37,346 nucleotides of DNA, taken from Candidatus Saccharimonadota bacterium (GTDB lineage Bacteria > Patescibacteriota > Saccharimonadia > Saccharimonadales > Saccharimonadaceae). The translations under genes and the position numbers were made by a program. The stretch spans positions 1 through 37,346 of the forward strand of contig JAGCSL010000090.1 in assembly GCA_017964115.1 (NCBI GenBank), written 5' to 3'. Below, in pieces: positions 20,627-33,396 of the stretch; the stretch's first letter is position 1, and the number at the start of each line of letters is the position of its first letter. The notes beneath the pieces were generated by a model, which was not told the DNA's origin, did no database searches, and saw only the letters and a program-made list of their open reading frames with translations.

Positions 20627-20702
20627 AATTACCTTTATTTTAGCATAAACGGAATAGAAAAAGTACATGTTTAGGCCGAGAGAGCGCTCTGCTGATGCGA
20701 AG

Positions 20703-20725
20703 AATAAAAAATAACCCGATGGGTT
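20703..20725 (-). terminator. Terminator after tRNA-Gly
   Basis: ATAACCC(20709-20715)/GGGTTAT(20719-20725). The plus-strand A-run 20704-20708 is the U-tract on the minus strand. Confidence 0.65.
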
Positions 20726-20736
20726 ATGTTTTATGC

Positions 20737-20811
20737 TTTGGTGCGGGTGGAGAGAGTCGAACTCTCGTCTCATCCTTGGGAAGGATACATAATAGCCGTT
20801 ATACGACACCC
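20737..20811 (-). tRNA. tRNA-Gly (anticodon CCC), CCA encoded
   Basis: The reverse complement folds as acceptor GCGGGTG/CACCCGC, anticodon loop TTCCCAA, T-arm GAGAG-TTCGACT-CTCTC, 3' ACCA. Confidence 0.85.
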
Positions 20812-20822
20812 GCGCTAGGTAT

Positions 20823-20831
20823 ATTTTAACA
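20823..20831 (-). promoter_or_regulatory. Extended -10 for tRNA-Gly
   Basis: Minus strand reads TGt-TAAAAT, 11 nt before the tRNA 5' end. Confidence 0.45.
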
Positions 20832-20850
20832 CAAAATGCATTAAGGGATT

Positions 20851-20859
20851 TGTTATGAT
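20851..20859 (+). promoter_or_regulatory. Extended -10, leaderless start for the 20866 gene
   Basis: TGt-TATGAT (20851-20859), then 6 nt, then ATG 20866. Confidence 0.5.
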
Positions 20860-20865
20860 AGAAGT

Positions 20866-21375
20866 ATGAGTGAAAAGAAGAAAGAAAGCAACAAACAATT
20901 TAAGATAGCGGCAATAATAATAGGGGCGATTGCGGTCGTAATAGCAATTGTCGCCGTGATAGTGTTTGGAATAGGCTCTTCGAGGCATGAACGAAACGGG
21001 GGGATAGTAAGTTTTTCGTATAGTCATGGTAGTGGGATGGGCGGATATGTTGATTACACGCTTAAGAAGCAAGATAATTTAGCGTTGTATTCGGCAAAAT
21101 GTATGGGCTGTATGATTAATTTTGATGTAAATAAGACAATCGATAGCTCATATTTAGGGAAAATAGCGGACATTGTTAAAAAATATGAGATGGGCAAATG
21201 GGACGGCTTCAATGAAAGCGATGATGGCGTATTGGATGGAAGTGGTTTTACGTTAAAAATCGAATACGATGACGAAAGGAAGATTGAGGCACATGGATAC
21301 ATGAAGTATCCGAGCAATTACCGTGAAGCGACGGAGGAATTGACTAATCTTCTAGACGAAATAAGAGAAGAATAA
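20866..21375 (+). CDS. Hypothetical single-pass membrane protein (169 aa)
   Basis: N-terminal Lys-rich segment plus a TM helix. The ectodomain motif FSYSHGSGMGGYVDYTLKKQDN is shared with the 22684-23118 product. Confidence 0.7.
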   Translation: MSEKKKESNKQFKIAAIIIGAIAVVIAIVAVIVFGIGSSRHERNGGIVSFSYSHGSGMGGYVDYTLKKQDNLALYSAKCMGCMINFDVNKTIDSSYLGKIADIVKKYEMGKWDGFNESDDGVLDGSGFTLKIEYDDERKIEAHGYMKYPSNYREATEELTNLLDEIREE

Positions 21376-21384
21376 TAAAACATT

Positions 21385-21412
21385 AAAAAGATCTCCGCTA
21401 GGAGATTTTTTT
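21385..21412. terminator. Bidirectional terminator (20866 gene / tRNA-Asp)
   Basis: ATCTCC(21391-21396)/GGAGAT(21401-21406) with GCTA loop, extended by flanking A-run and T-run. Confidence 0.75.
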
Positions 21413-21414
21413 AA

Positions 21415-21491
21415 TGGCGGGCCCGACGCGACTCGAACGCGCGACCTCCTCCGTGACAGGGAGGCGCTCTAACCAACTGAGCTACGAGCCC
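21415..21491 (-). tRNA. tRNA-Asp (anticodon GTC), CCA encoded
   Basis: The reverse complement is GGGCTCGTAGCTCAGTTGGTTAGAGCG-CCTCC-CTGTCAC-GGAGG..., with T-loop TTCGAGT and 3' GCCA. Confidence 0.9.
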
Positions 21492-21502
21492 TTGTGTTGA
21501 TA

Positions 21503-21531
21503 AGTATATACGAAAGTGGGCGGAATTGCAA
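21503..21531 (-). promoter_or_regulatory. Promoter for tRNA-Asp
   Basis: Minus strand reads TTGCAA (21531-21526) - 17 nt - TATACT (21508-21503), 11 nt before the tRNA 5' end. Confidence 0.5.
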
Positions 21532-21623
21532 GTGCTTTTGCACTGGTTTGACCTCTGTGGCTAAAGATGAGACAATGAAGTAGCACCTTAAAAACTCCGA
21601 TCTTCGCGAAAGGGGGAATCTAA

Positions 21624-22529
21624 ATGAAGCGAAGTAGATATAAAATAGTTGTGATTATTGTATGCTTGATCTTGGTAGGCATAATGGGGAGGTATTTTGC
21701 TAAAAGGATAACGACGCCAATTGCATCGATTCGAGTCGACGAGATGACGCCGCTAGCCTTAGAGCTAGTTTATAGGGGGAATAAACCGCAGGGAATAAGC
21801 TCAGTGCAGAGTATGGCGGCAACCGATGATTATTATATTATCGCGGGGAGGCCGTTTGGTACGAAAAAGCAGGGCGGTGAGACGAACAATAAGCTGATTA
21901 TCATTGATCGAAAAGAGTCGCGTGACGTAACGGAGGATTTTTTGAGCTCAGATGCAACTTTTGAGCTTGGACATGCGAACGGGATGACCTATGATCCTAT
22001 AAATAACGAGTTGATTGTGGTTGGAATTCGAAATGAGCAAGACGAATGCGATGGTGTAGCACGGATAGATGTAGAAAGTTTTGCGGAACGTGGACAGTGG
22101 AGTTTACCTTGTGTAGGAAATGGAATTGCTTATAACAATGTAGACGATACGTTCGTTGTGCGAGACGGTAAGAATTTGAGCGTATTGGACCGTGGTTTCT
22201 CGAAGGTATTGTTCGAGTATGAAGTAGCGACCGATCTGACAAACCAAGATATTTGTTACTATGACGGATGTCTATATTTGGTAAATTGGGCCTACGACGG
22301 TCAAGCGGCGCGTTCGGTGGGGATAAAAACTAACCAGAACGTGATATATCAGGTTGATATGCGCAATAATTGCGCTGTCCGTGCGTTTGTAGTATGTGAG
22401 CCGAGATTAGAGATGGAAAGTATGATTTTCGTAGACGGCGAAGCCTACGTATTATTCAATGGCGGAGGCAGTAGATACTGGTATTTCTATATCTATCGAG
22501 TATTGTTTAATGAGAATGACCTGAAGTGA
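21624..22529 (+). CDS. Hypothetical membrane-anchored protein, probable beta-propeller-like ectodomain (301 aa)
   Basis: SD aggggga. N-terminal TM helix. Repeated strand-like blocks (DDYYIIAG, GMTYDPINNELIVVG, GIAYNNVDDTFVVRDG, CYYDGCLYLVNW). TGA stop followed by a hairpin. Confidence 0.65.
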   Translation: MKRSRYKIVVIIVCLILVGIMGRYFAKRITTPIASIRVDEMTPLALELVYRGNKPQGISSVQSMAATDDYYIIAGRPFGTKKQGGETNNKLIIIDRKESRDVTEDFLSSDATFELGHANGMTYDPINNELIVVGIRNEQDECDGVARIDVESFAERGQWSLPCVGNGIAYNNVDDTFVVRDGKNLSVLDRGFSKVLFEYEVATDLTNQDICYYDGCLYLVNWAYDGQAARSVGIKTNQNVIYQVDMRNNCAVRAFVVCEPRLEMESMIFVDGEAYVLFNGGGSRYWYFYIYRVLFNENDLK

Positions 22530-22539
22530 GGAGTTGGAG

Positions 22540-22567
22540 AGAGCCTAGCATAGCGCTAGGCTCTTTA
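22540..22567 (+). terminator. Stem-loop after the 21624-22529 gene
   Basis: AGAGCCTAGC(22540-22549)/GCTAGGCTCT(22555-22564), followed by a short T-run. Confidence 0.6.
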
Positions 22568-22576
22568 TCTTGAATG

Positions 22577-22585
22577 TGTTATAAT
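22577..22585 (+). promoter_or_regulatory. Extended -10 for tRNA-Thr
   Basis: TGt-TATAAT (22577-22585), 13 nt before the tRNA 5' end. Confidence 0.5.
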
Positions 22586-22598
22586 CATTGGTACGGAC

Positions 22599-22674
22599 GC
22601 CGTTGTAGCTCAGCTGGCAGAGCAGCTCATTCGTAACGAGCAGGTCGCTGGTTCGATCCCAGTCAACGGCTCCA
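22599..22674 (+). tRNA. tRNA-Thr (anticodon CGT), CCA encoded
   Basis: Acceptor GCCGTTG/CAACGGC, D-arm GCTC/GAGC, anticodon loop TTCGTAA, T-arm GCTGG-TTCGATC-CCAGT, 3' TCCA followed by a T-run. Confidence 0.9.
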
Positions 22675-22683
22675 TTTTTTTGT

Positions 22684-23118
22684 TTAGTCCATTAAGAACA
22701 TTGGCATAAATTCTTCGATAGAATAAGTTTTGTCGCTATTTGGTATTGTGACAAATGAGTAGGCGTTGTTTTCTTTAGCGACCGTAAATACATTGTCCGT
22801 CCACTGAACCGAGCCACGTTTAGTGATCTTATGAACCCATTCGCTGCTCCCCCATTCTTTAGTGGTGCTGGTAACGTTTATATAATCAAAACCAGAGTTG
22901 GCGTGGCCGTTGTCTTGCTTGTAAATATATGTTTCGTAGGTTCTTTCACCAGAGCCGCCATGAAAAATGGCAATGTAATTATCTGGAATCGTATCACTAG
23001 TTTGGCTATTCTTGCTATTAATTATAAAAAAAGCAGCAATGACGGCGCCGATAATAGCAAGGATGGCAATGACTATCCAAATGATTATCTTATTATTCTT
23101 TTTTGATGTACGTTTCAT
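22684..23118 (-). CDS. Hypothetical single-pass membrane protein (144 aa)
   Basis: Lys-rich N-terminus plus a TM helix. IFHGGSGERTYETYIYKQDN resembles the 20866 product. The start abuts the upstream stop (TAA-ATG). Confidence 0.7.
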   Translation of the reverse strand: MKRTSKKNNKIIIWIVIAILAIIGAVIAAFFIINSKNSQTSDTIPDNYIAIFHGGSGERTYETYIYKQDNGHANSGFDYINVTSTTKEWGSSEWVHKITKRGSVQWTDNVFTVAKENNAYSFVTIPNSDKTYSIEEFMPMFLMD

Positions 23119-23628
23119 TTAATTACTCCTATTATTTTCTATATTAGTTGGCGTTTCCCAATCAGATAGATTGAGATTTTTGAGCTTTTCTCTTGGAATA
23201 ATAGCAACAAAATACCAGAAGGCCATATCGTCAGTGCCGATTTCTGGTGAGTCTGTTTTAATTTCGAAATTGACGGTGTCATGGTCGAAATTGACGGCGG
23301 ACAGTTGGTGCTGGACGCTACCGGAATTGGCCGGTTGTACCATAATAAAAATGTCATTTGCGTTTAAATAACTAGCATCAAGACTTAGCGTATCTGAATA
23401 GAGCGCATAAAAAGCATCGAGATCGACAGTGGATCTGATGCGATATTTTGTGGTAGCCGGCGCATTTTCGAAGTATTCATGGGTCTGCAATTCGTATTTA
23501 ATGATTTTACTGTCGGTTTTAGGAAGATTGAGGCCGCTGTAATGATAATAAAGCCAAGCGGAACATCCGCCGATGACAATTAATAATATTACGGCGATGA
23601 TAGCAGTGATTTTTTGATTAATCCGCAT
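23119..23628 (-). CDS. Hypothetical membrane-anchored or lipoprotein-like protein (169 aa)
   Basis: N-terminal hydrophobic helix ending in the lipobox-like VIGGC. Beta-rich ectodomain. First gene of a 2-gene minus-strand unit. Confidence 0.7.
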   Translation of the reverse strand: MRINQKITAIIAVILLIVIGGCSAWLYYHYSGLNLPKTDSKIIKYELQTHEYFENAPATTKYRIRSTVDLDAFYALYSDTLSLDASYLNANDIFIMVQPANSGSVQHQLSAVNFDHDTVNFEIKTDSPEIGTDDMAFWYFVAIIPREKLKNLNLSDWETPTNIENNRSN

Positions 23629-23634
23629 AACTGT

Positions 23635-23643
23635 ATTTTAACA
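23635..23643 (-). promoter_or_regulatory. Extended -10, leaderless start for the 23628 gene
   Basis: Minus strand reads TGt-TAAAAT (23643-23635), then 6 nt, then ATG 23628. Confidence 0.5.
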
Positions 23644-23675
23644 TAAGCGATTGGCTATTATATAATATAGGTATT

Positions 23676-25271
23676 GTGAGTAGAGAAGAAAACGCTAATT
23701 ACGATTATTATAATGTGCCGAAATTGACGGATTTGTGGGACTTGGTTTGTTTGCGAAAAGATTCTAAGAAAACTGCTTTTTCTTGGCGTGAAAATGGCAA
23801 ATTGTGTCATAAAAGTTTCGCGGATTTTTATGAAGAAGTGAACATTTTGAGTGCCTATTTTTATGCAAATTACCAGGGTAAAAATATTGCCTTAATTGGC
23901 GAGGACAGCTATGCATGGGTGCTAGTTGCTTTGGCGATTGTGATAAGCGGTAATGTTTGTGTGGCTTTAGATAAGGATACCGATGCAGAATTGTTGAAAA
24001 AGCAGCTAAAACAAGTGGACGTAAAAGCGGTTTATTATTCGTTAAATTATTGTGAGAATATGGGCGAAATATTCCGAGAAAGTTATCCGCTTGAAGACTT
24101 GGATGATTATTTAAATATTGGGCGTAAATTGCATAATAAAAATATTCAGGATGCAGACAAAGATGCAATGATTTTCTTTACGTCGGGTACGACTGGATAT
24201 AGTAAGGCAGTGGTCTTATCGCAGAAAAATATAGTAGCGGATATTTACGGCGCATCGTCGCTTTATACGCCAGATAAACGAGCGGCAAGCTTTTTGCCAT
24301 ATCATCATGCGTTTGGCTTCGTGACGTCATTATTGATGCCTTTTTATTATGGTTGCGATACTTTTATTTCGAACAGCCTGAAACATCTAATGGACGACTT
24401 TAAGGACGGTAAGCCGGATGTTATTTTTGCGGTGCCGATGGTAGTAGAAACAATGTATCGTCAAATTTGGCGTACGGCACGACGCGAAAAACGCGAAAAG
24501 AAATTGGCGCGAGCCGTTAAAATTAGCGACGCGCTACGTAAAATTGGAATTGATTGGCGACAAAAGTTTTTCAAGTCAATTTTGGATGAATTTGGCGGAG
24601 AAGTAAAATATATTATCTGTGGCGGAGCGGCACTCGACGTAAAATATGTAGAATGGTTCAGAAGTATTGGTATCGAGGTATTGGTCGGCTATGGCATTAC
24701 AGAATGTTCGCCAGTTGTGGCGGTAAATCGTAACCATTATAAACGTGATGGCAGTGTAGGGCAGATTTGCCGAGACGTTGATGTGAAAATTGTAGACGAT
24801 GAAGTTGTTGTGAGTGGTGATATTGTCATGAAAGGGTACTATAAAGACCGAAAGGCGACAGAAGAAGTTCTTTCGAATGGTCATTTTCACACTGGCGATT
24901 TAGGCAAGATAGACGAAGATGGTTTTCTGTTTATAACAGGACGTAAAAAGAACTTAATTATTCTGAGTAATGGCGAAAATGTGAGCCCAGAAGAAATTGA
25001 AACTGAGTTAGCACGCGATGATGGTGTGGCGGAAGTTTTGGCTTATGACGATAACAATAGAATAGTAGTGACGATTTTCCCGAATAAGGGATACTTAGGT
25101 GATCAAGAATATTTTGATGAACTTGTGGGCGAGTATAATAAAGGCAGGCCAAAGAATCGTCAGATTGCTTTTGTGCGTTTGCGTGATAGCGAATTTCCAC
25201 GTAATAACAACGGCAAAGTTTTAAGAGATAAATTAATAGAGGAAGAAATAAATGGAAAAGGAAGTATTTAA
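23676..25271 (+). CDS. AMP-forming acyl ligase (ANL superfamily; fatty acyl-CoA/ACP synthetase-like)
   Basis: GTG start. AMP-binding core TSGTTGYSK (24180-24206), GYGITE, TGDLGKIDEDGFLFITGRKK, C-terminal NGKV. 531 aa. Confidence 0.82.
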   Translation: MSREENANYDYYNVPKLTDLWDLVCLRKDSKKTAFSWRENGKLCHKSFADFYEEVNILSAYFYANYQGKNIALIGEDSYAWVLVALAIVISGNVCVALDKDTDAELLKKQLKQVDVKAVYYSLNYCENMGEIFRESYPLEDLDDYLNIGRKLHNKNIQDADKDAMIFFTSGTTGYSKAVVLSQKNIVADIYGASSLYTPDKRAASFLPYHHAFGFVTSLLMPFYYGCDTFISNSLKHLMDDFKDGKPDVIFAVPMVVETMYRQIWRTARREKREKKLARAVKISDALRKIGIDWRQKFFKSILDEFGGEVKYIICGGAALDVKYVEWFRSIGIEVLVGYGITECSPVVAVNRNHYKRDGSVGQICRDVDVKIVDDEVVVSGDIVMKGYYKDRKATEEVLSNGHFHTGDLGKIDEDGFLFITGRKKNLIILSNGENVSPEEIETELARDDGVAEVLAYDDNNRIVVTIFPNKGYLGDQEYFDELVGEYNKGRPKNRQIAFVRLRDSEFPRNNNGKVLRDKLIEEEINGKGSI

Positions 25272-25479
25272 ATTAATCGCGGACACATTAGAAGTAGACG
25301 AAAAGAAGATTACGCTTGAGACGGACTTTCTGAATGATCTCGATGTCGAATCTTTGGATTTGGTAGATTTGGTGACCGCTTTTGAAGATAAGTATGATGT
25401 TGAAATAGCTGACAAGGATGTAAAAAATTTGCATACGGTTGGAGATGTAATTGATTACATCAAGGAACGCCAAAAATAA
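25252..25479 (+). CDS. Acyl carrier protein
   Basis: 75 aa. The pattern LNDLDVESLDLVDLVTAFEDKYDVEI places the phosphopantetheine Ser at 25351-25353. Overlaps the ligase 3' end by 20 nt. Confidence 0.85.
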   Translation: MEKEVFKLIADTLEVDEKKITLETDFLNDLDVESLDLVDLVTAFEDKYDVEIADKDVKNLHTVGDVIDYIKERQK

Positions 25480-25512
25480 ACTTAAGGGTAAATGGCGAGT
25501 TTTTAAGCTTTT

Positions 25513-25521
25513 TGGTATAAT
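25513..25521 (+). promoter_or_regulatory. Possible internal extended -10 before the GT8 genes
   Basis: TGG-TATAAT (25513-25521), 13 nt before ATG 25535. Confidence 0.4.
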
Positions 25522-25534
25522 CTAGAAAGTTGTT

Positions 25535-26347
25535 ATGAATATTTTGTATTGTGGCGACAGAAACATTCTGGATGGGTTGATTATTTCAACCCTATCTCTT
25601 GCTAAACATACATCGAGACCGCTTTCTATCTATGTGCTTACGATGCGCCTGAAGGGATATAAAGAAATACCAGCAAGCGCAATCGAAAATCTTGAGAAAA
25701 TTTTAAAGACGAAGGATGAGCGTCACTCAATTAAGTTAATTGATGCGACGGAAGCCTTTAATTCTGATATGCCGCGGGCAAATCTAAAAACCTTTTTCAC
25801 GCCGTATTGTTTGCTAAGGCTTTATGCTGATTTGATTAAAGAATTGCCGAAAAAATTACTATATCTTGATACGGATGTGGTCGCGTTGCGTGATCCGTAT
25901 GAGCTGTACAAGATGAATAACGACGAATATGAATTGATTGGGGCGGTGGATTATTATGGCCAACATTGGATTCGTACGAGCCTTTTCGAAAAAACTTATA
26001 TGAATTCAGGAGTTCTTTTGATGAATATGGATTTAATACGTCAATCGGGCTTGTTTAGAAGGACACGTCGACGCGTGGCACATACGAAGATGTTGCTGCC
26101 AGACCAAACTTCGTTAAATTTGTACTCAAGACGCAAAAAGATAGTTGATCGTAAGTTTAACGAACAAAAGCGCGAAACTGAAGATACGGTATTTAGGCAT
26201 TTTTCGACAACGTTCAGATTTTGGCCAATGTTTCATACGCAAAAGATTAAGCCTTGGGATATCGAGAAGTTGCATGATGTGTTGAAATGTCATGCTTTCG
26301 ATGACGTGCTGGATGAATATCTAAAAGTTAGAAAAAAGGTGAGATAA
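25535..26347 (+). CDS. Glycosyltransferase family 8 (retaining, LgtC/RfaJ-like)
   Basis: NILYCGD..., DxD in LLYLDTDVVAL, NSGVLLMNMDLIR. Confidence 0.8.
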   Translation: MNILYCGDRNILDGLIISTLSLAKHTSRPLSIYVLTMRLKGYKEIPASAIENLEKILKTKDERHSIKLIDATEAFNSDMPRANLKTFFTPYCLLRLYADLIKELPKKLLYLDTDVVALRDPYELYKMNNDEYELIGAVDYYGQHWIRTSLFEKTYMNSGVLLMNMDLIRQSGLFRRTRRRVAHTKMLLPDQTSLNLYSRRKKIVDRKFNEQKRETEDTVFRHFSTTFRFWPMFHTQKIKPWDIEKLHDVLKCHAFDDVLDEYLKVRKKVR

Positions 26348-26348
26348 G

Positions 26349-27305
26349 ATGAGCAAGCTAACTGTGCCAGTATTCTTTTCCGTCGACGAAAAATATGCGC
26401 CATATCTTGGTATTGCGATGGCCTCTCTGATAGAGCATACGAATAAAGAATATAATTACGAAATTCATGTCGTGCATAATAATACGAAAAAACGTACGAT
26501 GCAAAAGATTAAAAATCTTAGCAAAGGCCACGACAACGTGAAGATTATTTTGACCGAAATGAAAGATAAATTACGTGGAATTTCGGATCGAAAGGAAACG
26601 CGCTTGAAGGGTGATTACTTTACGCCGACGATTTATTACCGGATTTTCTTGCCAGAAATGTTCCCAGATTATGATAAAGGCATTTATCTTGATAGTGACA
26701 TCGTAGTGCTGGGTGACGTCGCAGAATTATTTAAGACTGATTTAGGTGATAATTTGATAGGCGCTTGTTCGGATATTTCGGCGAATAATAACCAGCTGTT
26801 TTGTGATTATTTTGAGCGCGTTGTGGGCGTGAAGAGTAAGAAATATATCAATTCCGGTGTGCTATTGATGAATTTCAAAAAAATGCGCGACGAAGAATTC
26901 GTGGAGCGTTTCTTGTATTTACTGAATACCTATGATTTCGATACGGTTGCGCCAGATCAAGATTACTTAAATTCGATGTGCGATGGCCGCATTATGCATC
27001 TAGACCAGATTTGGAATGCAATGCCGACACCTACGCAAAAATTTGTGCGTAATCCGATGATAGTGCATTATAATATGTTCTTTAAACCGTGGCATTATGA
27101 CGGTACGATGTATGAAGAGCATTTCTGGAAGTATGCTAATGAGTCAGTTTTTTTGAAGGATATTCAACGTGAAAAGAAATCGTTTACGCGGTGGGATAAA
27201 AAAGGCGATGAGAAACGCTTGCAATGGATGGCCGATCGCGTTACGGAGATTCTCGGAAACGAGATGACGTTTCGAACAGTTTTACGTAAAGAAGAGAAAA
27301 GATGA
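26349..27305 (+). CDS. Glycosyltransferase family 8 (second copy)
   Basis: VFFSVDEKYAPYLGIAMASL, DxD in IYLDSDIVVLGD, INSGVLLMNFKKMR. Starts 1 nt after the upstream stop. Confidence 0.8.
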   Translation: MSKLTVPVFFSVDEKYAPYLGIAMASLIEHTNKEYNYEIHVVHNNTKKRTMQKIKNLSKGHDNVKIILTEMKDKLRGISDRKETRLKGDYFTPTIYYRIFLPEMFPDYDKGIYLDSDIVVLGDVAELFKTDLGDNLIGACSDISANNNQLFCDYFERVVGVKSKKYINSGVLLMNFKKMRDEEFVERFLYLLNTYDFDTVAPDQDYLNSMCDGRIMHLDQIWNAMPTPTQKFVRNPMIVHYNMFFKPWHYDGTMYEEHFWKYANESVFLKDIQREKKSFTRWDKKGDEKRLQWMADRVTEILGNEMTFRTVLRKEEKR

Positions 27306-28168
27306 TTATTGGTGGCGATAAAACTCCGGTTATTGAAAATATTAAGAAGAACATCAAAAACGAGGAGTTTAACAAAAAAGTTGAAGTTGATGACCCGACA
27401 ATGTCGGACGAAGAGGCTGAGCGCGCAATCAATGAATTCAAAGATTTTCGCAATAATCATAAGTTTAAATTTTTCTGGCGCCGTAGGGGAGCAGTTGCAA
27501 TTCAGAGAATTATGGGCGGAGTAATGAGCCCCTCAATTAGAATCGATGGAATTGAGAAGCTGGACACAATCAAGAAGGGCGCTATTGTCACAAGCAATCA
27601 TTTTAATCATTGCGATAGTATGTGCGCACGCAAAGTTATTCGCAAAAAATTTCATAAAACACCATACATTGTGATTCAAGAAACGAACGTAGCGATGCCG
27701 GGTATTATTGGTTATTTAATGAATAATTTAAACACTTTACCGCTCAGAAAGGGTCCAAACTATATAACAAAAGAATTTGTACCTGAATTGAAGGAACTGA
27801 CTGATAGAGGTGAATTTGTCTTAATATATCCAGAAGAGGAGATGTGGTACAACTACCGTAAACCACGCCCATGCAAACGTGGTAGTTATATGTTTGCTGC
27901 GATGGCGAATGTTCCGGTGGTGCCGATTTTTGTGGAAATAATTGATTCGGGCAAGAAGGATAATGATCAGTTTAATTTATTGAAATTTGTTGCGCATGTA
28001 TTAGACCCAATTTATCCAGATTCGGAAAAAACCGTCAAAGAAAATAGTCGCGAAATGGCAGAAAAAGATTATGCGGAAAGGGTTGAGGCTTATGAGAAAG
28101 CCTATGGCGAAAAGTTGAATTATAAGTTTTCCGCAAAAGATATAGTAGGGTTGAGAACTAAGATTTAG
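27302..28168 (+). CDS. Lysophospholipid/glycerolipid acyltransferase (PlsC/LPLAT family)
   Basis: HX4D block HFNHCD at 27599-27616 and an IYPEEE block (FPEGT-like). 4-nt overlap with the upstream GT8. Confidence 0.75.
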   Translation: MIIGGDKTPVIENIKKNIKNEEFNKKVEVDDPTMSDEEAERAINEFKDFRNNHKFKFFWRRRGAVAIQRIMGGVMSPSIRIDGIEKLDTIKKGAIVTSNHFNHCDSMCARKVIRKKFHKTPYIVIQETNVAMPGIIGYLMNNLNTLPLRKGPNYITKEFVPELKELTDRGEFVLIYPEEEMWYNYRKPRPCKRGSYMFAAMANVPVVPIFVEIIDSGKKDNDQFNLLKFVAHVLDPIYPDSEKTVKENSREMAEKDYAERVEAYEKAYGEKLNYKFSAKDIVGLRTKI

Positions 28169-28919
28169 GCTTATATTCTATGTAGGCGTAGTTGCTGAGA
28201 TTGGCGCGTCGTTGCATGGTCTCGGTGATTTTTTCTTGATAGTAATGAGTCTTGTCTTTGCGCGGCAAATCTTTCGGTGCGCGAATTGGGCCATCGACAT
28301 AGATAGTTATTTTTGGTTTCTTATGAAACTTTGATTTTTGATAGGTTGTCGTGGCGACGAAAACGGGAGCGTTAATTGTTGCGGGGTAATGAAAAGCGGC
28401 CGTGTTCATAGGGCGAATGCCGGTATACCATGGCCAAACGTGAGCTTCTGGATAGGTGACAATCACTTTTTTCTGTTGAATACGAGTTTTTATTGCAGAG
28501 TTAAACTGTTGAAGTTGATGGATATTGTCTGGGATAGGCAAAGCGCCCATTAATGGCAACTGTCGACCGATTGCGACAATGCCAAGATTGGCTGGACTGC
28601 AAATTAGATAAGGATGAGTTGGAAAAGTTGTGATGAAATGATTTACGACATCTCCGAAAACTTGAGTATGGCTGGAATAGAGGAAATAGCCTTGTTTTTT
28701 GGCCTTTTTAAGGACTTTTTTATTGACGATTTTGACGTGGGCGTAGAACTTTTGATAGCAAAATACAAAAATAATGATAATCGGATAGAGTAGAGCAGAG
28801 ATAATGCGATGAGATAGTTTTGGATTAATCCACTGATAGTCATCGGGGAGTTTATAGTCCTGCTGTTTGCTTTCGGAAAAGTCTTGGTCAAAAGACTTGT
28901 AGTATTTTACGTGGTTCAT
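28158..28919 (-). CDS. Putative membrane-associated acyltransferase (LPLAT-like, divergent)
   Basis: N-terminal TM helix. SSHTQVFGD (His...Asp block with non-canonical spacing) and TYPEAHVWP (PEG-like block). Last gene of the zur-znu operon (4-nt overlap with znuB). Confidence 0.5.
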   Translation of the reverse strand: MNHVKYYKSFDQDFSESKQQDYKLPDDYQWINPKLSHRIISALLYPIIIIFVFCYQKFYAHVKIVNKKVLKKAKKQGYFLYSSHTQVFGDVVNHFITTFPTHPYLICSPANLGIVAIGRQLPLMGALPIPDNIHQLQQFNSAIKTRIQQKKVIVTYPEAHVWPWYTGIRPMNTAAFHYPATINAPVFVATTTYQKSKFHKKPKITIYVDGPIRAPKDLPRKDKTHYYQEKITETMQRRANLSNYAYIEYKPKS

Positions 28920-29728
28920 CTTAGCTTATTATATATCCAACAAAGAATGAGCATGATTAGGTTTGTTAGAACAATAGTTGCGCCGGTTGGAGCGTTAAAT
29001 GCATAAGACATTGTAAAACCAATAATAAAACAGACGACAGATATTATTAGAGAAATGATGATATTTTGGTGATAGTTTTTACTGAGATAGAGCGCAGATA
29101 GACTGGGGAAGATTATTAGGCTTGAAATAAGCAGTGCCCCCAACATACGCATACCGACAACAACGATGAGCGCACAGAGAATGGCAAGAATAGTATTGTA
29201 TAGTTCAGTTTTTAGACCAATGGCCTTAGCGAACTTTTCGTCAAATGTAATAGCAAAAATTTGGCGGCGGAGGCATAAATAAATTGCAACTACAATGAAC
29301 CCTAAGATGGCGCAAATAATTAAATCGTGTTGACCGATAGCGAGAATGCTACCAAATAAGTAAGCGTTTAGATCGATGTTTGTGCCACGATTAACAGATA
29401 TGAGGAATGTACCAAGAGCGAGAGCGGATGCAGACAGTACGGCAATGGCAGCATCTCCGTTGATTTTTGAGTTTTGGTTTAAACGCAATATAAGAATTGC
29501 TGCAATAATAACGATTGGGATTGAAAATTCTATCGGTGCGAGGTCGAGGATAGTTGCGATGGCGGCAGAACCGAATGCAACGTGAGATAAACCGTCGCCA
29601 ATCATGGATTGTTTGCGCAAAACGAGACTTGAGCCAATAAGGGCGGAGCAGATTGCAATGATGATTCCGGCTAAAAATGCGCGCAGGATGAAATTATAGT
29701 TAAGCATCTCGATGAAACTACTCAGCAT
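28916..29728 (-). CDS. znuB: Metal (Zn/Mn) ABC transporter permease, ABC-3 family
   Basis: 270 aa, polytopic. Typical ABC-3 blocks (GDGLSHVAFGS, ...FDEKFAKAIG...). Confidence 0.82.
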   Translation of the reverse strand: MLSSFIEMLNYNFILRAFLAGIIIAICSALIGSSLVLRKQSMIGDGLSHVAFGSAAIATILDLAPIEFSIPIVIIAAILILRLNQNSKINGDAAIAVLSASALALGTFLISVNRGTNIDLNAYLFGSILAIGQHDLIICAILGFIVVAIYLCLRRQIFAITFDEKFAKAIGLKTELYNTILAILCALIVVVGMRMLGALLISSLIIFPSLSALYLSKNYHQNIIISLIISVVCFIIGFTMSYAFNAPTGATIVLTNLIMLILCWIYNKLR

Positions 29729-30386
29729 GAATCCTCCTTACATAATCGGAAGTGCTACCAAAAAATGGAAGATTCGGGTCAAGAGACAGAATTTTATTAC
29801 CGATGAGATTGTGGTGGTCGAGGTCGTGAGTAACCATGAGAATAGTGGTAGTTTGATTAAGTTTTTTCAGGATTTTATAAAAATCTTGCTTAGATTTGTA
29901 ATCAAGATTATTAGACGGCTCGTCAAGGATTAGAATATCTGTGCTGGCGACTAAGGCGCGAGCGAGTAGAACGCGTTGACGTTGGCCGCCGGATAGCTCC
30001 TGAAATGATTTATTTTTTAGAGTATTTAGCTGAAGTGTTTCGAGAACGGAGCTAATTTTAGCTTTTGGATAAGGAGTAAATGGGCCGATTTGATTAAGAG
30101 CACCAGATGCAACGATTTCGTAGACTGAAGCGGGGAAGATGGGATTTAGTTCGGTGTTTTGAGGCAAGTAGCCGATATGGTGATTTTTAGAACCATTTTT
30201 AAAGAGAATTTTTCCTGAACTTGGCTTTATCTCGCCAAGAATGCATTTGAGAAGAGTGGATTTTCCTGAGCCATTTGGCCCAACAATGCAAAGGAAATCT
30301 TTATCTTCTACAGTGAAAGAGAGATTTTTGAATACAAAATGATGGCCATAACGAAGACTTAGGTGCTTAGCCTGCAGTGCGGTCAT
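29718..30386 (-). CDS. znuC: Metal ABC transporter ATP-binding protein
   Basis: Walker A GPNGSGKST, signature LSGGQRQRVLLARAL, Walker B ILILDEP. Confidence 0.88.
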   Translation of the reverse strand: MTALQAKHLSLRYGHHFVFKNLSFTVEDKDFLCIVGPNGSGKSTLLKCILGEIKPSSGKILFKNGSKNHHIGYLPQNTELNPIFPASVYEIVASGALNQIGPFTPYPKAKISSVLETLQLNTLKNKSFQELSGGQRQRVLLARALVASTDILILDEPSNNLDYKSKQDFYKILKKLNQTTTILMVTHDLDHHNLIGNKILSLDPNLPFFGSTSDYVRRIHAE

Positions 30387-31332
30387 GAAGAGCCTCGCCT
30401 AAGTTTTTTAGATTCTCCTGCATAAAATCGAGATACGTTTTGCCAGCATCGAAATCGGCTTGAGAAAGATTATGGACGGAATGCCAGGTAAGAACAGTGG
30501 CTTTAGTAGATTTTGAAACAGTTTGGGCGATTTTGCCGTTCGATAACTCTAGTTTGAAAATAATTTTATTTGAACTATCTTTGGTAGCTTTAATGAGTTC
30601 AGCAACGGTTTTGGCGGAAGCCTCAGTTTGCTCGGAACAGCCAGGAAAGGCGGCTAAATAATTGAAGCCATACTCGTTGGTGAAATAAAGAAAAGGGAAA
30701 CGGTCGGCAATGATAATGGTACCAGTTTTTTGCGACGCTAGACTACGAAAGCTTTCGTCGAGTTTTTCGAGATCGGTTTTGAATTGATCAAGATTGCGCT
30801 GAATAGTTGATGTATTGTCTGGCGCGTGGTTCTTGATAGCTTGCGCGATAGCTTCAGAAATTTTTATGACATTATTGGGATTAGTCCAAACGTGTTCATC
30901 GTAATCTGTTTCGGTTTTTATATCATTACTCTTTGCGTTGAGGATATTGTCTAGAGATTCTTCTTTTAGCTCTACGGAATCCATCATACGGACAATTACA
31001 GTATTATCTTTATCAATTTCGTTAAGAATACTATTTATCCAACTTTCAGATTCGCCACCATTATAAATAAAGATATTTGATTCTTTAATAGCGATAATAT
31101 CTTGTGGGGTAGGCTCGTAGCTATGCAAATCAGCGCCAGGCTTAATGAGCATTTTAATTTCGGTATTGGTATCCTTGCTGATTGTGCGTGCGAAATCATA
31201 GGCCGGGAAGATAGTGGTGACTATTTTAGTTTGCTCAACTTCTGGTGTTTGGTTACTGATGGGAAGGAAGAATAGAGTAGAAAAAGTGGCGATGAGGGCA
31301 AGGAAGAAAATGATTTTGAGAATAGTTCTCAT
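30367..31332 (-). CDS. znuA: Metal ABC transporter substrate-binding protein (ZnuA/TroA family)
   Basis: Signal/anchor MRTILKIIFFLALIATF. HSYEPTP and DEHVW metal-ligand blocks. ATG 31332 is preferred over 31359 because it lies 1 nt after the zur stop. Confidence 0.82.
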   Translation of the reverse strand: MRTILKIIFFLALIATFSTLFFLPISNQTPEVEQTKIVTTIFPAYDFARTISKDTNTEIKMLIKPGADLHSYEPTPQDIIAIKESNIFIYNGGESESWINSILNEIDKDNTVIVRMMDSVELKEESLDNILNAKSNDIKTETDYDEHVWTNPNNVIKISEAIAQAIKNHAPDNTSTIQRNLDQFKTDLEKLDESFRSLASQKTGTIIIADRFPFLYFTNEYGFNYLAAFPGCSEQTEASAKTVAELIKATKDSSNKIIFKLELSNGKIAQTVSKSTKATVLTWHSVHNLSQADFDAGKTYLDFMQENLKNLGEALHDRTAG

Positions 31333-31333
31333 A

Positions 31334-31744
31334 TTAAGCCTTCTTTGCGCAGTCGGCACAGGTGCCAGTTAAAACTAGACTATAATTTGAAACTTTAAAA
31401 TCATGCTTCTTGGATAGATGTTTGGAAAAATTTTTGAGATGGCGACAGTCGATATGAGTCATGCGATGACACTTTTCGCATTCAAGATAGAAATGGTTTT
31501 CATCAGTGCAGGGTTTGAAATAAAAGTATTTAGTAGTATTATTATCGCCGATAATTTTACGAATAGTACCATCGGAGGAAAATTCATCTAAGAAACGATA
31601 GACTGTGCTGGTGCCCATGGGGTTTTCATCTTCTTTAAGACGTTCTAGGACTTCTTTAGCCGTGAAAGGCTTGCGGAAAGTTTGAATTGTTTGCAGAAAA
31701 TAGTTGCGATTAATTGTGTTGTATTTCATTTTATAACTCTTCAC
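31334..31744 (-). CDS. zur: Fur-family metalloregulator, probably Zur
   Basis: 136 aa. Winged helix (STVYRFLDEF), structural Zn sites CEKC and CADC. First gene of the metal-uptake operon. Confidence 0.75.
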   Translation of the reverse strand: MKSYKMKYNTINRNYFLQTIQTFRKPFTAKEVLERLKEDENPMGTSTVYRFLDEFSSDGTIRKIIGDNNTTKYFYFKPCTDENHFYLECEKCHRMTHIDCRHLKNFSKHLSKKHDFKVSNYSLVLTGTCADCAKKA

Positions 31745-31878: not shown

Positions 31879-33396
31879 ATGTGTAGGAGTTATAAAGCTA
31901 TTTTTGGCGTTATGTTAACGCTTGGGATGGGTTTTATAATTGCTGGAACGACAAGTGCGGAGAGCCTACTCGGTTACGAGATTATTAACGGTGAGAATGG
32001 TGGAAGCTTCTTGCCGGCTGCAAATAAGATTATTATCAGCGGTGGAGAAGTTACGATATCTGGCACCTCTAAGGTGCCTTTAAATATTATTGGTGATGTT
32101 AAGTTGACATTGAAAGATGTGACGATTAATTCGGCAAAAGGGGCGGGCATTTCGATTGATAGTGGCGTAAAGGCTGAAATTATTCTTGAAGGAAAAAATA
32201 AAGTTGTTGGCGAAGGCGTAGGCGCGGGGATTAGCGTGGGATACGCTGGCAATGGCAATATGGCTACGTTAACCATCGATGGCGATGGTGAGCTTAATGT
32301 TACTGGTGGCAATGATGGCGGCGCCGGGATTGGTGGCAATGGTACGAAGACAATCAGCGCGATTAATGGAAAGATTATCATTAACGGTGGAAACATTGTA
32401 GCGGCTGCACAGGCAAATAGCGCGGGGATTGGTGGTGGCACTGGTTCTAGCGCATTGGCTAATAAAGACTATAAAGCTGGCTTAATTACGATTAACGGTG
32501 GTAGCGTTTCCGCGACGGGTAAGGCCGGTAGCGCTGGTATAGGTGGGGGAAATTATATTAATACGAATATAAAAGTTAATAATGGCGAATTAAACTCGAT
32601 TCAGGGCGGTGACTTTGCGGCTGGGATTGGTGGCGGTAACTGTAGTGCGAGTGTGAATATCAAGATCGAAGGCGGTAGCTTTAATGACATTCGCGGTTAT
32701 GAAAGTGATGCTGATGAAGCTTTGGGCGGTGCGGCAATCGGCTCTGGCGCAAAGGTGTGCGACGTTGATACGAAAGTTAAATTAAATATCATAAATGGTG
32801 TAGTAAAAAATGCCGTGGCAGGTTGGGGTGCTGCCGGTATTGGCAATGGCGCAGGTAGTGAGATAGAAAGCGTCGTAAAAATTGGTAAAGATGCACAAAT
32901 TACGCGCCTATATACCGACGGTGAAAGAATGCCGCTTGAAGAGAATGCGAATATTGAAGGTAATTTATTGCAGGTTGCTTTCTCGGAAGCGGCGGATACA
33001 AGTTCAGAAGAAAGCCTTGAGGTCGTCAACTATGATGACGAAAGTGAAGCGTATAAGATTGAATTGCCAAAAGGATATCGTGCTTTCGCGACGACGGTCA
33101 AGAAGGAGGCTGATTACTCGGTGCGTGGTTCAAAATACTATGCCGAGAAAGAGGAAAGTGAAAAGGACTCTGAGCAGAAGATTAAGCTTAATGTCGAAAG
33201 TGGCGTGGTGTTGGCGCACAGTAATTTATATCCAGTAGAGAGCGTGCCTGAGCGTAAGCTAAGTACGGCCGAGGATAATGACGGGAACTGGTTATTAAAA
33301 ATTGTGTTCATGGCGAGTGGAGCGGTAATTGCGGTAGCAATCACGGGCTATGCCGTATCATTAAGTGCCTTAATTAAGGCGAGAAGAAATCGTTAA
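31879..33396 (+). CDS. Surface protein with beta-helix-type xAGIGGG repeats and a C-terminal TM anchor
   Basis: Signal peptide ...AGTTSA|ES. About 8 repeats of (I/V)x(I/V)xGG.(V/I)xA....(S/A)AGIGGG at 30-36 aa spacing. Acidic stalk. C-terminal TM helix plus KARRNR. Confidence 0.75.
   Translation: MCRSYKAIFGVMLTLGMGFIIAGTTSAESLLGYEIINGENGGSFLPAANKIIISGGEVTISGTSKVPLNIIGDVKLTLKDVTINSAKGAGISIDSGVKAEIILEGKNKVVGEGVGAGISVGYAGNGNMATLTIDGDGELNVTGGNDGGAGIGGNGTKTISAINGKIIINGGNIVAAAQANSAGIGGGTGSSALANKDYKAGLITINGGSVSATGKAGSAGIGGGNYINTNIKVNNGELNSIQGGDFAAGIGGGNCSASVNIKIEGGSFNDIRGYESDADEALGGAAIGSGAKVCDVDTKVKLNIINGVVKNAVAGWGAAGIGNGAGSEIESVVKIGKDAQITRLYTDGERMPLEENANIEGNLLQVAFSEAADTSSEESLEVVNYDDESEAYKIELPKGYRAFATTVKKEADYSVRGSKYYAEKEESEKDSEQKIKLNVESGVVLAHSNLYPVESVPERKLSTAEDNDGNWLLKIVFMASGAVIAVAITGYAVSLSALIKARRNR

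Follow-up and report, generated by a model that had tools for sequence, protein, structure and literature searches.

How Patescibacteria, the bacteria of the candidate phyla radiation (CPR), acquire their membrane lipids is an acknowledged open question. Saccharibacteria lack fatty-acid synthesis and, as a group, also de novo amino-acid and nucleotide synthesis (PMC11665869; 10.1101/2023.05.02.539146), and no mechanism of lipid uptake or assembly is known for them (PMC11665869). The closest described systems come from other phyla. Sulfoquinovosyl diacylglycerol (SQDG) in Sinorhizobium and Rhodobacter is not made by glycosylation of diacylglycerol (DAG); SqdB, SqdC, and SqdD jointly yield sulfoquinovosyl-glycerol, with SqdD, a glycogenin-like glycosyltransferase of family 8 (GT8), putting the sugar on a C3 acceptor that SqdC then reduces to the glycerol form (10.1101/2022.08.18.504050). 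SqdA, a member of the PlsC superfamily with a strict HX5D motif, acylates this glycosyl-glycerol and its monoacyl form, strictly with acyl-AcpP, and the other characterised HX5D enzymes (OlsF, by its N-terminal domain, and SalA) acylate lyso forms of non-phospholipids (10.1101/2022.08.18.504050). A second relevant gene set surrounds horA on plasmids of beer-spoiling bacteria. Four genes are found "consistently" around horA (PMC4394401), horA-flanking genes are transcribed in beer at more than three times the level of horA (PMC3765258), and four plasmid genes are specific to beer-spoiling Levilactobacillus brevis, with the same presence pattern in all of them (PMC6533708, Table 6). Although it was noted about 20 years ago, no biochemical function has been assigned to this set. 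Here, a cluster of six genes at positions 23676-28919 of a 37,346-nucleotide stretch of DNA from a Saccharibacterium (contig JAGCSL010000090.1 of assembly GCA_017964115.1; the whole stretch is hereafter termed the window) is examined. The cluster encodes a ligase (LIG), an acyl carrier protein (ACP), two GT8 glycosyltransferases (GT8a and GT8b), and two acyltransferases of the lysophospholipid acyltransferase (LPLAT) type (AT5 and AT6). It is argued, with moderate confidence, that this module builds a glycolipid from scavenged fatty acids; its last four genes are orthologous to the set that surrounds horA.

The six proteins of the window were compared against fetched loci, with neighbourhoods of about 10 kb taken on each side. 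The AT6 family was present in 462 GTDB species genomes. The complete six-gene form, in the same order and arrangement as in the window, was found in 29 loci including the window itself, and these belong to Saccharibacteria and to metagenome-assembled genomes (MAGs) labelled 'Bacilli' or 'Bacillales', one of which (L094) has sporulation genes. A four-gene form that comprises GT8a, GT8b, AT5, and AT6, with no ligase or ACP, was found in 35 further loci; it occurs in Lachnospiraceae, Oscillospiraceae, Muricomes intestini DSM 29489, and Clostridium sp. CAG:411, on a Roseburia plasmid, and on the horA plasmid pPECL-8. Recurrence in 29 plus 35 loci places the arrangement far beyond what chance would produce. 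Where the core is chromosomal in Clostridia, and also on the Roseburia plasmid, its four genes share a strand, usually with overlaps. The genes that flank the module vary between lineages, indicating that it moves as a unit. A neighbour-joining tree of the concatenated core proteins separates Clostridia from a clade of 'Bacilli' and Saccharibacteria, and all forms that carry the ligase and ACP lie inside that clade and are monophyletic. The ligase and ACP are absent from the Clostridia loci; more generally, both are missing where the host itself makes acyl-ACP.

The window derives from a gut or rumen Saccharibacterium of the Nanosyncoccaceae type. Homologues of LIG at 60-86% identity are labelled Candidatus Saccharibacteria, and the nearest genome loci are MAGs of Saccharibacteria or Nanosyncoccaceae (phylum Saccharimonadota), several of them from the gut of goat, roe deer, and other ruminants. 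The possibility that the cluster is universal in Saccharibacteria was rejected, since the complete annotation tables of the oral species Southlakia epibionticum contain no PF00501, PF00550, PF01501, PF01553, PF01648, or PF02660; the cluster is thus a lineage-specific accessory trait. G+C content is 0.37-0.41 across 23-32 kb of the window versus 0.42-0.50 upstream, and GC skew is positive in all 1-kb bins of positions 1-37346 whatever the orientation of the genes, a pattern compatible with a position on the leading strand and with a segment of distinct composition that was possibly acquired. Since the core is widespread in Firmicutes and the G+C content of the 23-32 kb segment is lower, acquisition from Firmicutes is favoured: the cluster was probably acquired horizontally, and a Firmicutes origin of the core would be the parsimonious reading. 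The searchable literature yielded no description of the module in Saccharibacteria and none that pairs Saccharibacteria with these gene types.

Variants of the core were also observed. Six loci of Erysipelotrichaceae (L006, L007, L017, L019, L020, and L022) encode AT6 alone, without GT8 genes or AT5, and in two of these (L006 and L007) AT6 is followed by a 174-amino-acid open reading frame (ORF) with no Pfam match. In a variant from Clostridia (L032, L035, L046, L048, L057, and L075), AT6 is followed by GT8a split into two ORFs, with GT8b next wherever the contig reaches; no AT5 was detected in those loci.

Searches with tblastn against plasmids showed that AT6 and GT8a have orthologues over their full length on the brewery plasmids carried by Levilactobacillus brevis, Pediococcus damnosus, P. 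claussenii, P. inopinatus, Loigolactobacillus backii, Secundilactobacillus paracollinoides, and Fructilactobacillus lindneri. On pPECL-8 of P. claussenii (PECL_1950-1954), the gene order is GT8a, horA (on the opposite strand), AT6, GT8b, and AT5, and full-length identities to the window proteins are 39% for GT8a, 40% for GT8b, and 36% for both AT5 and AT6. All four core proteins of the window have their best plasmid matches in this horA-flanking set. Hop iso-alpha-acids are membrane ionophores, and the association of the set with hop tolerance is therefore consistent with an envelope lipid as the product. HorA itself is an ABC exporter of the MsbA/LmrA type that lies inside the module on the brewery plasmids, and exporters of the HorA/MsbA type were detected near the core in 6 of 91 loci (L092, which is pPECL-8, and L036, L041, L045, L085, and L086). 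Similar half-transporters occur near the core in a few loci of Clostridia and 'Bacilli', too sparsely to serve as evidence; HorA may natively export the lipid product of the module. No HorA homologue was detected in the window by BLASTP against all ORFs of at least 40 amino acids.

Gene fusions further tie the acyltransferases to the glycosyltransferases. A profile search of 1.8 billion representative proteins recovered fusions of AT6 with GT8a (P0401, P0444, and P0494; in P0401, the GT8 portion shares 43% identity with GT8a of the window) and of a family-4 glycosyltransferase (GT4) with AT6 (P0511, P0526, and P0499), and AT5 and AT6 share a single open reading frame in L047. These fusions indicate that the acyltransferases are tied to glycosyl transfer and not to general phospholipid synthesis.

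Other proteins adjoin the module in some of its carriers. A membrane protein of family PF06541 ('ABC_trans_CmpB') adjoins the cluster in eight loci (L001-L003, L014, L015, L025, L033, and L094) and is fused to an AT6 domain in P0420; the window has no copy of PF06541. This protein may be a transporter or flippase partner. Additionally, P0454 (1079 amino acids) is a P-type ATPase, with E1-E2 ATPase and HAD domains, that carries a full AT6 domain at its C-terminus, and it is either a real fusion or an artefact of gene calling. An HAD hydrolase was found in a single locus, beside LIG in L094. The idea of a consistent additional neighbour (flippase, phosphatase, or reductase) was rejected, as an all-versus-all comparison of flanking ORFs gave one large cluster, which consisted of mixed ABC ATPases and included znuC of the Saccharibacteria loci. 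Likewise, no epimerase/dehydratase-type or reductase gene was found in the cluster or consistently adjoining it in the 91 loci.

AT5 (27302-28168, forward strand) is an acyltransferase of the LPLAT/PlsC family (PF01553, E = 2.4e-15) with a conserved 45-amino-acid N-terminal extension, and its motifs NHFNxxD (HX4D), YPEEEMW, and PRPCKRG are invariant. Its AlphaFold2 (AF2) model (pLDDT 89.2) best matches the fold of PlsC (5kym, E = 4e-7), followed by PatA and glycerol-3-phosphate acyltransferases (GPATs); it shares the two-helix N-terminus of PlsC and has a nearly invariant Lys near block II. AT6 (28158-28919, reverse strand) converges on AT5 with an 11-nt overlap and has a single hydrophobic helix at its N-terminus. 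Neither Pfam nor NCBIfam gives a match to the protein itself, yet many of its homologues carry PF01553, and its AF2 model (pLDDT 86.9) matches PlsC, LpxM, PatA, and GPAT1, with a TM-score of 0.57 (TMq) for PlsC versus 0.49 for PatA. Searches of PDB sequences with AT5 and AT6 returned nothing significant, and the folds are hence predicted. In AT6 the invariant motifs are YPEAHVW and NHTQxxGD, the latter an HX5D dyad seen across 19 diverse orthologues that, in an hhalign alignment, has one extra residue relative to NHQNNYD of Escherichia coli PlsC. Both proteins thus fall within the LPLAT/PlsC superfamily, AT5 by PF01553, HX4D, and YPE, and AT6 by its fold and its orthologues, though its dyad is HX5D. 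The hhalign probability is 73% for AT5 and 78% for AT6 against E. coli PlsC, but 98% (E = 5e-14) for AT6 against AT5, so that each of the two is nearer to the other than to PlsC.

Neither protein is PlsC in the strict sense, as indicated by a TIGR00530 score of 34 against a cut-off of 103 and by the motifs that contact the acceptor. Blocks II and III of PlsC bind the glycerol-phosphate acceptor (Heath & Rock; Lewin et al., as summarised in 10.1101/2022.08.18.504050). Block III of PlsC, EGTR, is replaced by EEEMW in AT5 and by EAHVW in AT6, following the pattern E(A/E)(H/E)xW, and the Arg of block II ('IDR') aligns by hhalign with a non-conserved Asp in AT6. The missing Arg argues against a phosphorylated acceptor for AT6, and the replacement of EGTR in both proteins together with the lack of this Arg in AT6 fits a non-phosphorylated acceptor. 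Further, BLASTP (E <= 1e-3) gave no match between either acyltransferase and any ORF of the E. coli loci containing plsC and aas. The start codon of AT6 overlaps the znuB stop codon by 4 nt, and AT6 is the last gene of a minus-strand operon of zur (FUR family), znuA, znuC, and znuB (28916-31744). L008-L013 and L021 retain this junction, whereas the Saccharibacteria loci L001-L003, which are more distant, do not; it would be odd for just one of two acyltransferases to be expressed under zinc control.

The two glycosyltransferases precede AT5 on the forward strand. Both have the PF01501 domain, a DxD motif, and a C-terminal KPW-type motif, as expected of GT8 proteins. GT8a (25535-26347; 270 amino acids; PF01501, E = 2.7e-17; motifs DTD and KIKPW) is a short and divergent member of this retaining family for which sequence searches returned no PDB relative. 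GT8b (26349-27305; PF01501, E = 7e-47; motifs DSD and FFKPW) resembles LgtC and has a basic C-terminal tail, and in the PDB it matches LgtC (2.3e-22), WbbM in its GT8 domain, and 3tzt. An extended -10-like element, TGGTATAAT, occurs at 25512-25521, directly upstream of GT8a.

The first two genes of the cluster could supply the acyl donor. LIG (23676-25271, forward strand; 531 amino acids; GTG start) belongs to the ANL superfamily, as shown by PF00501 (E = 3.5e-53) and a C-terminal domain, and is of the long-chain fatty-acid type. Its translation contains FFTSGTTGYSK (A3), TGDLG...GRKKNLI (hinge), and PRNNNGKVLR (A10), the last with the C-terminal GK catalytic Lys. PRK06187, a long-chain-fatty-acid--CoA ligase, is the top NCBIfam match, with Aas models at about 122 bits; FadD13 is the best match in the PDB, and the best matches in both databases are fatty-acyl or aryl CoA ligases. 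LIG shares 27% identity with E. coli FadD over 475 amino acids (127 bits) and 26% with the ligase domain of E. coli Aas (100 bits), and its homologues at 50-86% identity come from Saccharibacteria and from 'Bacilli' MAGs. None of nine PDB matches at E <= 1e-20 was deposited as a fatty acyl-AMP ligase (FAAL), and no FAAL model occurred among the top 25 NCBIfam matches, a comparison that did not include a direct FAAL alignment. A DltA model was likewise missing from the top 25 NCBIfam matches, and the generic amino-acid adenylation model TIGR01733 scored 112 bits against a cut-off of 317. In amino-acid-activating adenylation domains, an Asp binds the alpha-amino group; the substrate-pocket region of LIG reads LPYHHAFGF, an acyl-CoA synthetase pattern that lacks this Asp. 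By analogy, LIG would function as an acyl-ACP synthetase. The gene context agrees with an ACP as acceptor, in that LIG overlaps the gene of an AcpP-type ACP by 20 nt and travels in relatives with this ACP and a holo-ACP synthase (ACPS). A promoter-like site, TTAACA-17-TATAAT (23638-23666, forward strand), matches the consensus at 11 of 12 positions, the best match in the region and a match to the consensus only, in a region where the number of such sites equals the expectation from shuffling. This site ends 9 nt before the GTG start, and the LIG transcript may be leaderless or nearly so.

ACP (25252-25479, forward strand; 75 amino acids; PF00550) starts inside LIG, with an overlap of exactly 20 nt, and is preceded by a GAGGA Shine-Dalgarno sequence; judged from this layout, it is translationally coupled to LIG. 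It is of the AcpP type, with a PP-binding domain, a DSL-type Ser, scores above the curated NCBIfam cut-offs (NF002148, 82.9 vs. 71; TIGR00517, 76.0 vs. 70.45), and 39% identity to E. coli AcpP. The codon of the phosphopantetheine-attachment residue Ser34 is TCT at 25351-25353. All 60 listed of its 65 PDB matches were deposited as acyl carrier proteins, including the meromycolate-extension and mitochondrial proteins, with no D-alanyl carrier among the matches listed. The (E/D)SLD motif around the Ser is invariant across 27 distinct orthologues, which argues that the carrier is still in use. No phosphopantetheinyl transferase (PPTase) was detected in the window (phmmer with the ACPS of a relative, E <= 1e-3), and the gene is missing in the closest relatives of the window as well. 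Seventeen 'Bacilli' loci, L094, and the Saccharibacteria locus L014 have an ACPS/PPTase gene (PF01648) directly behind ACP; loci with a cluster PPTase between ACP and GT8a, or after ACP, comprise L014, loci in the range L024-L055, L072, L080, and L094. The module thus also comes in a seven-gene form, LIG-ACP-ACPS-GT8a-GT8b-AT5 with AT6 convergent, and the PPTase gene has been lost or relocated in the lineage of the window. The position of ACPS next to LIG and ACP in relatives indicates that ligase, carrier, and PPTase travel as a unit that supplies the acyl donor.

Most of what an initial annotation of the window had read from the DNA held up. All six genes lie at the coordinates that it gave and carry its motifs, including the 20-nt overlap of LIG and ACP and the Ser codon at 25351-25353, with one correction: HX4D applies to AT5, and the dyad of AT6 is HX5D, not HX4D. 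The absence from the window of enzymes of type II fatty-acid synthesis (FAS-II), of MBOAT, and of a PPTase was confirmed by Pfam scans of the larger window ORFs and, for the PPTase, by phmmer; the same scans revealed no DltD and no PlsX or PlsY domain. Of the outcomes that it had named as contrary to its reading, none of those checked was found: the ligase is not an activator of D-alanine or another amino acid, judged by the matches to fatty-acyl and aryl CoA ligases, the AcpP-type carrier, and the lack of DltB and DltD in the window, and the genes are strongly co-conserved. Its description of the route as self-contained does not strictly hold for the window, which lacks the PPTase that the seven-gene relatives possess.

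The observations above are best accommodated by a two-layered pathway. In the first layer, LIG would adenylate a free long-chain fatty acid obtained from the host or the gut and charge with it the phosphopantetheine arm of ACP, its co-translated partner, yielding acyl-ACP by the logic of AasS and Aas, with ACP rather than CoA as the presumed acceptor; a PPTase encoded elsewhere would make the holo-ACP. In the second layer, GT8a, GT8b, AT5, and AT6 would form an autonomous glycolipid-building operon fed by this acyl-ACP. The two retaining GT8 enzymes would draw on nucleotide sugars to attach two hexoses in alpha linkage, the two LPLATs, associated with the membrane, would attach two acyl chains, and the product would be a diacylated (di)glycosyl-glycerol lipid of the cytoplasmic membrane or envelope. 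Tentatively, and by analogy with SqdD and SqdA, the sub-route could be acylation of a glycosyl-glycerol. In the preferred order of steps, GT8a would act on a small glycerol-derived acceptor, AT5 (HX4D) and then AT6 (HX5D) would acylate the product, and GT8b would add the second sugar, a sequence that would mirror the SqdD/SqdA route and bypass phosphatidic acid (PA). Firmicutes that make their own acyl-ACP would need the second layer only, and Saccharibacteria and the reduced 'Bacilli' branch would have added the ligase, ACP, and, ancestrally, the PPTase.

Several points weigh against this interpretation. The ligase family alone cannot distinguish an ACP from a CoA acceptor, and the nearest characterised relatives of LIG are CoA ligases. 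With no PPTase in the window, formation of holo-ACP would depend on a gene elsewhere. The resemblance of AT6 to SqdA, OlsF, and SalA is one of motif and logic only. The cluster has neither an SqdC-like reductase nor a phosphatase that could provide a glycosyl-glycerol acceptor, and the fold searches rank the sugar-acylating enzymes PatA and LpxM beside PlsC, such that O-acylation of a sugar is possible.

An alternative use of the same enzymes is de novo synthesis of PA. AT5 and AT6 would be acyl-ACP-dependent acyltransferases of glycerol-3-phosphate (sn-1) and lysophosphatidic acid (sn-2), an unlinked phosphatase would release DAG, and GT8a and GT8b would convert it to mono- and dihexosyl-DAG; in Saccharibacteria, the same route would also supply PA for all phospholipids. 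The canonical HX4D of AT5, its PlsC-like two-helix N-terminus, its best fold match (5kym), its nearly invariant Lys near block II, and the presence of GPAT structures among the fold matches of both proteins would all fit such a role, as would the HAD phosphatase beside LIG in L094. Additionally, Southlakia encodes a CDP-alcohol phosphatidyltransferase yet lacks both PlsC and PlsY, indicating that some Saccharibacteria need PA or DAG from outside. Nevertheless, Clostridia and lactobacilli possess PlsX, PlsY, and PlsC and yet keep both acyltransferases locked to GT8 genes, AT6 is fused to GT8a or GT4, both enzymes lack the EGTR of block III, AT6 lacks the phosphate-binding Arg of block II, and neither finds the E. 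coli plsC or aas loci by BLASTP. This route is considered unlikely. Scarcely better placed is decoration of an existing lipid, in which the LPLATs would O-acylate, as PatA does, the sugars of a self-made or host-derived glycosyl-DAG or of a lipoglycan or lipoteichoic acid (LTA) anchor extended by the GT8 enzymes, and the resulting tri- or tetra-acylated glycolipid anchor would tighten the envelope. The ranking of PatA and LpxM with PlsC in both fold searches speaks for it, and the adjacency and fusion of GT4 and LPLAT genes recall pimA and patA. Moreover, 6-O-acyl diglycosyl-DAGs are known LTA anchors in lactobacilli, the weak best NCBIfam matches of the GT4 part of the GT4-AT6 fusions include the LTA-anchor glycosyltransferase IagA/BgsA, and a less permeable envelope would suit the link to hop tolerance. 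Against these stand the family of the AT5 and AT6 homologues, which is PF01553 and not the PatA/LpxL family PF03279, and the higher TM-score of AT6 for PlsC than for PatA; even with such decoration, Saccharibacteria would still require a source of DAG lipids.

Readings that detach the acyltransferases from the GT8 genes, or the ligase from fatty acids, fare worse than the proposed assembly of a glycosyl-glycerol lipid. LIG, ACP, and the LPLATs could together re-acylate host lysophospholipids, as a split version of the Lands-type cycle of E. coli Aas-LplT or Chlamydia AasC-CT775, with the GT8 enzymes acting independently on a wall glycan or protein. E. coli Aas is indeed a fusion of an LPLAT and an acyl-ACP synthetase, whose ligase domain shares 26% identity with LIG, the Chlamydia pair offers a precedent (PMC5693948), and lysolipids are reportedly enriched in CPR bacteria (Probst 2020, as cited in PMC11665869). 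However, in the 35 loci without ligase and ACP the acyltransferases remain linked to the GT8 genes and not to a ligase, AT6 is fused to GT8a and lacks the Arg that would bind a phosphate, and the window has no LplT-like gene of the major facilitator superfamily (MFS), making this scenario improbable. More remote still is the suggestion that the ligase loads an amino, hydroxy, or aryl acid onto the carrier for decoration of a wall polymer or for a secreted acyl-sugar natural product. A ligase followed by a small carrier does resemble DltA/DltC and the FAAL-ACP starters of secondary metabolism, and TIGR01733 does register on LIG, though far below its cut-off. The top ligase families are nonetheless fatty-acyl CoA ligases, the pocket is of the acyl-CoA synthetase pattern without the Asp for an alpha-amino group, the carrier exceeds the AcpP cut-offs and its listed PDB matches are uniformly acyl carrier proteins, and the window contains no DltB/MBOAT, DltD, condensation, or ketosynthase (KS) domains. 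The Dlt-like version was accordingly rejected on the ligase family, the AcpP-type carrier, and the lack of DltB and DltD.

The other larger ORFs of the window are housekeeping genes (pyrG, argS, mscL, dnaG, rpoD, type IV pilus genes, xerC, and ndk), the Zur-ZnuACB operon, and unannotated proteins. Downstream, at 31879-33396 (forward strand), lies a gene for a Gly-rich protein of 505 amino acids, which begins with a signal-peptide-like segment, contains repeats of the GGxGxG type, and has a hydrophobic anchor at the C-terminus; its sole family match is a sub-threshold one to Beta_helix_3, and it is probably a surface protein. Upstream, at 19631-23628, tRNA genes for Gly (CCC), Asp (GTC), and Thr (CGT) lie among small ORFs that match no family and whose products have hydrophobic segments at the N-terminus, with a fourth tRNA gene, for Arg (CCT), further upstream. 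The ORF listed at 19631-20809 extends into the tRNA-Gly gene, and its actual start must thus be internal.

The interest of the module lies in three previously unconnected observations that it joins: an abundant but unnamed four-gene operon of gut Clostridia, the surroundings of horA, and the logic of glycosyl-glycerol acylation by GT8 and HX5D enzymes known from SQDG. The finding suggests a function for the horA-flanking genes, which have served brewers as spoilage markers for two decades, and it offers an answer, open to direct test, to the question of how membrane lipids are built in some CPR bacteria, with a defined gene set for at least one animal-gut lineage. As an accessory capacity that probably came from Firmicutes, the cluster also bears on the host range of Saccharibacteria and on their adaptation to the gut. 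In its broadest form, which can be advanced only with reserve, the cluster might be the first membrane-lipid assembly line described in CPR/Patescibacteria, one that bypasses PA: free fatty acids from the host or gut would be loaded on a dedicated ACP, and GT8 glycosylation of a glycerol-derived acceptor would be combined with acylation by HX4D and HX5D LPLATs to give a glycolipid able to form bilayers. In that case, the four-gene core would represent a widespread glycolipid pathway of gut Firmicutes and the partner of horA in hop resistance, and the module together with its kit of ligase, ACP, and PPTase would amount to a cross-phylum upgrade in lipid autonomy. Cultured carriers are at hand in Muricomes intestini DSM 29489, Roseburia sp. 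831b, and the L. brevis and Pediococcus strains with horA plasmids.

Viewed against known systems, each component of the cluster is of a known family, and both salvage of fatty acids on an ACP and construction of glycolipids by glycosyltransferases and LPLATs are precedented. The composition as a whole (a dedicated ligase and ACP, with a PPTase in relatives, two GT8 enzymes, and a pair of LPLATs with HX4D and HX5D) is without a characterised equivalent. The initial annotation's interpretation of fatty-acid salvage coupled to an acylated glycoconjugate is supported, and the genes are conserved together, as the six-gene and four-gene loci and the AT6 fusions show. Its remark that no comparable system was known stands with regard to characterised ones, but the four-gene core is the known horA-flanking set, and SqdD/SqdA provides a partial precedent. 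The DltA/DltC pair is similar in having an ANL ligase of about 500 amino acids followed by a carrier of about 80 amino acids and in modifying the envelope; here, in contrast, the carrier is of the AcpP type, the ligase is of the fatty-acid type, and the window has no DltB or DltD, so that the cluster does not belong with D-alanyl carriers. Like PimA and PatA of mycobacterial phosphatidylinositol mannoside (PIM) synthesis, the cluster encodes glycosyltransferases and LPLAT-fold enzymes together, presumably for one glycolipid, and PatA is among the best fold matches; PatA is nonetheless of the LpxL/HtrB type, uses acyl-CoA, and acylates a mannose on a phospholipid, and PimA is a GT4 and not a GT8.

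The likeness to acyl-ACP synthetases (E. coli Aas-LplT, Chlamydia AasC, and Vibrio harveyi AasS) would lie in an ANL ligase that charges an exogenous fatty acid onto ACP for use by an LPLAT. In Chlamydia, AasC (CT776) and the LPLAT CT775 are encoded by separate adjacent genes in a reduced genome (PMC5693948). In E. coli, Aas is a single fused protein that relies on the housekeeping ACP and the LplT transporter; in the window, ligase and LPLATs are separate genes with no MFS gene, the ligase is nearer to FadD than to Aas (127 vs. 100 bits), the ACP is dedicated and accompanied by a PPTase in relatives, and the LPLATs are tied to GT8 genes. Closer in logic is the SqdD/SqdA pathway of Rhizobiales and Rhodobacterales, which also permits use of exogenous glycosyl-glycerol and pairs a GT8 with an HX5D acyltransferase of the PlsC superfamily; the donor of SqdA is acyl-ACP, and AT6 has the same dyad as the lyso-lipid O-acyltransferases SqdA, SalA, and OlsF (in its N-terminal domain). 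The window differs in having no SqdB or SqdC, two GT8 enzymes and two LPLATs instead of one each, and carriers from other phyla. The cluster is consequently not a member of the SQDG pathway that acylates sulfoquinovosyl-glycerol, but it may work alike. In the plasmid searches, AT6 retrieved only the Firmicutes module and GT8a retrieved that module plus unrelated GT8 genes, among them a Rhizobium match outside any sqd operon. The horA-flanking set, finally, differs from the window in placing the ABC exporter gene horA between GT8a and AT6 and in lacking the ligase and ACP, and, as that set is itself uncharacterised, the likeness is one of orthology to a module of undescribed biochemistry. It is nevertheless a likeness that extends to all four core genes, with the order AT6-GT8b-AT5 shared by pPECL-8 and Clostridia.

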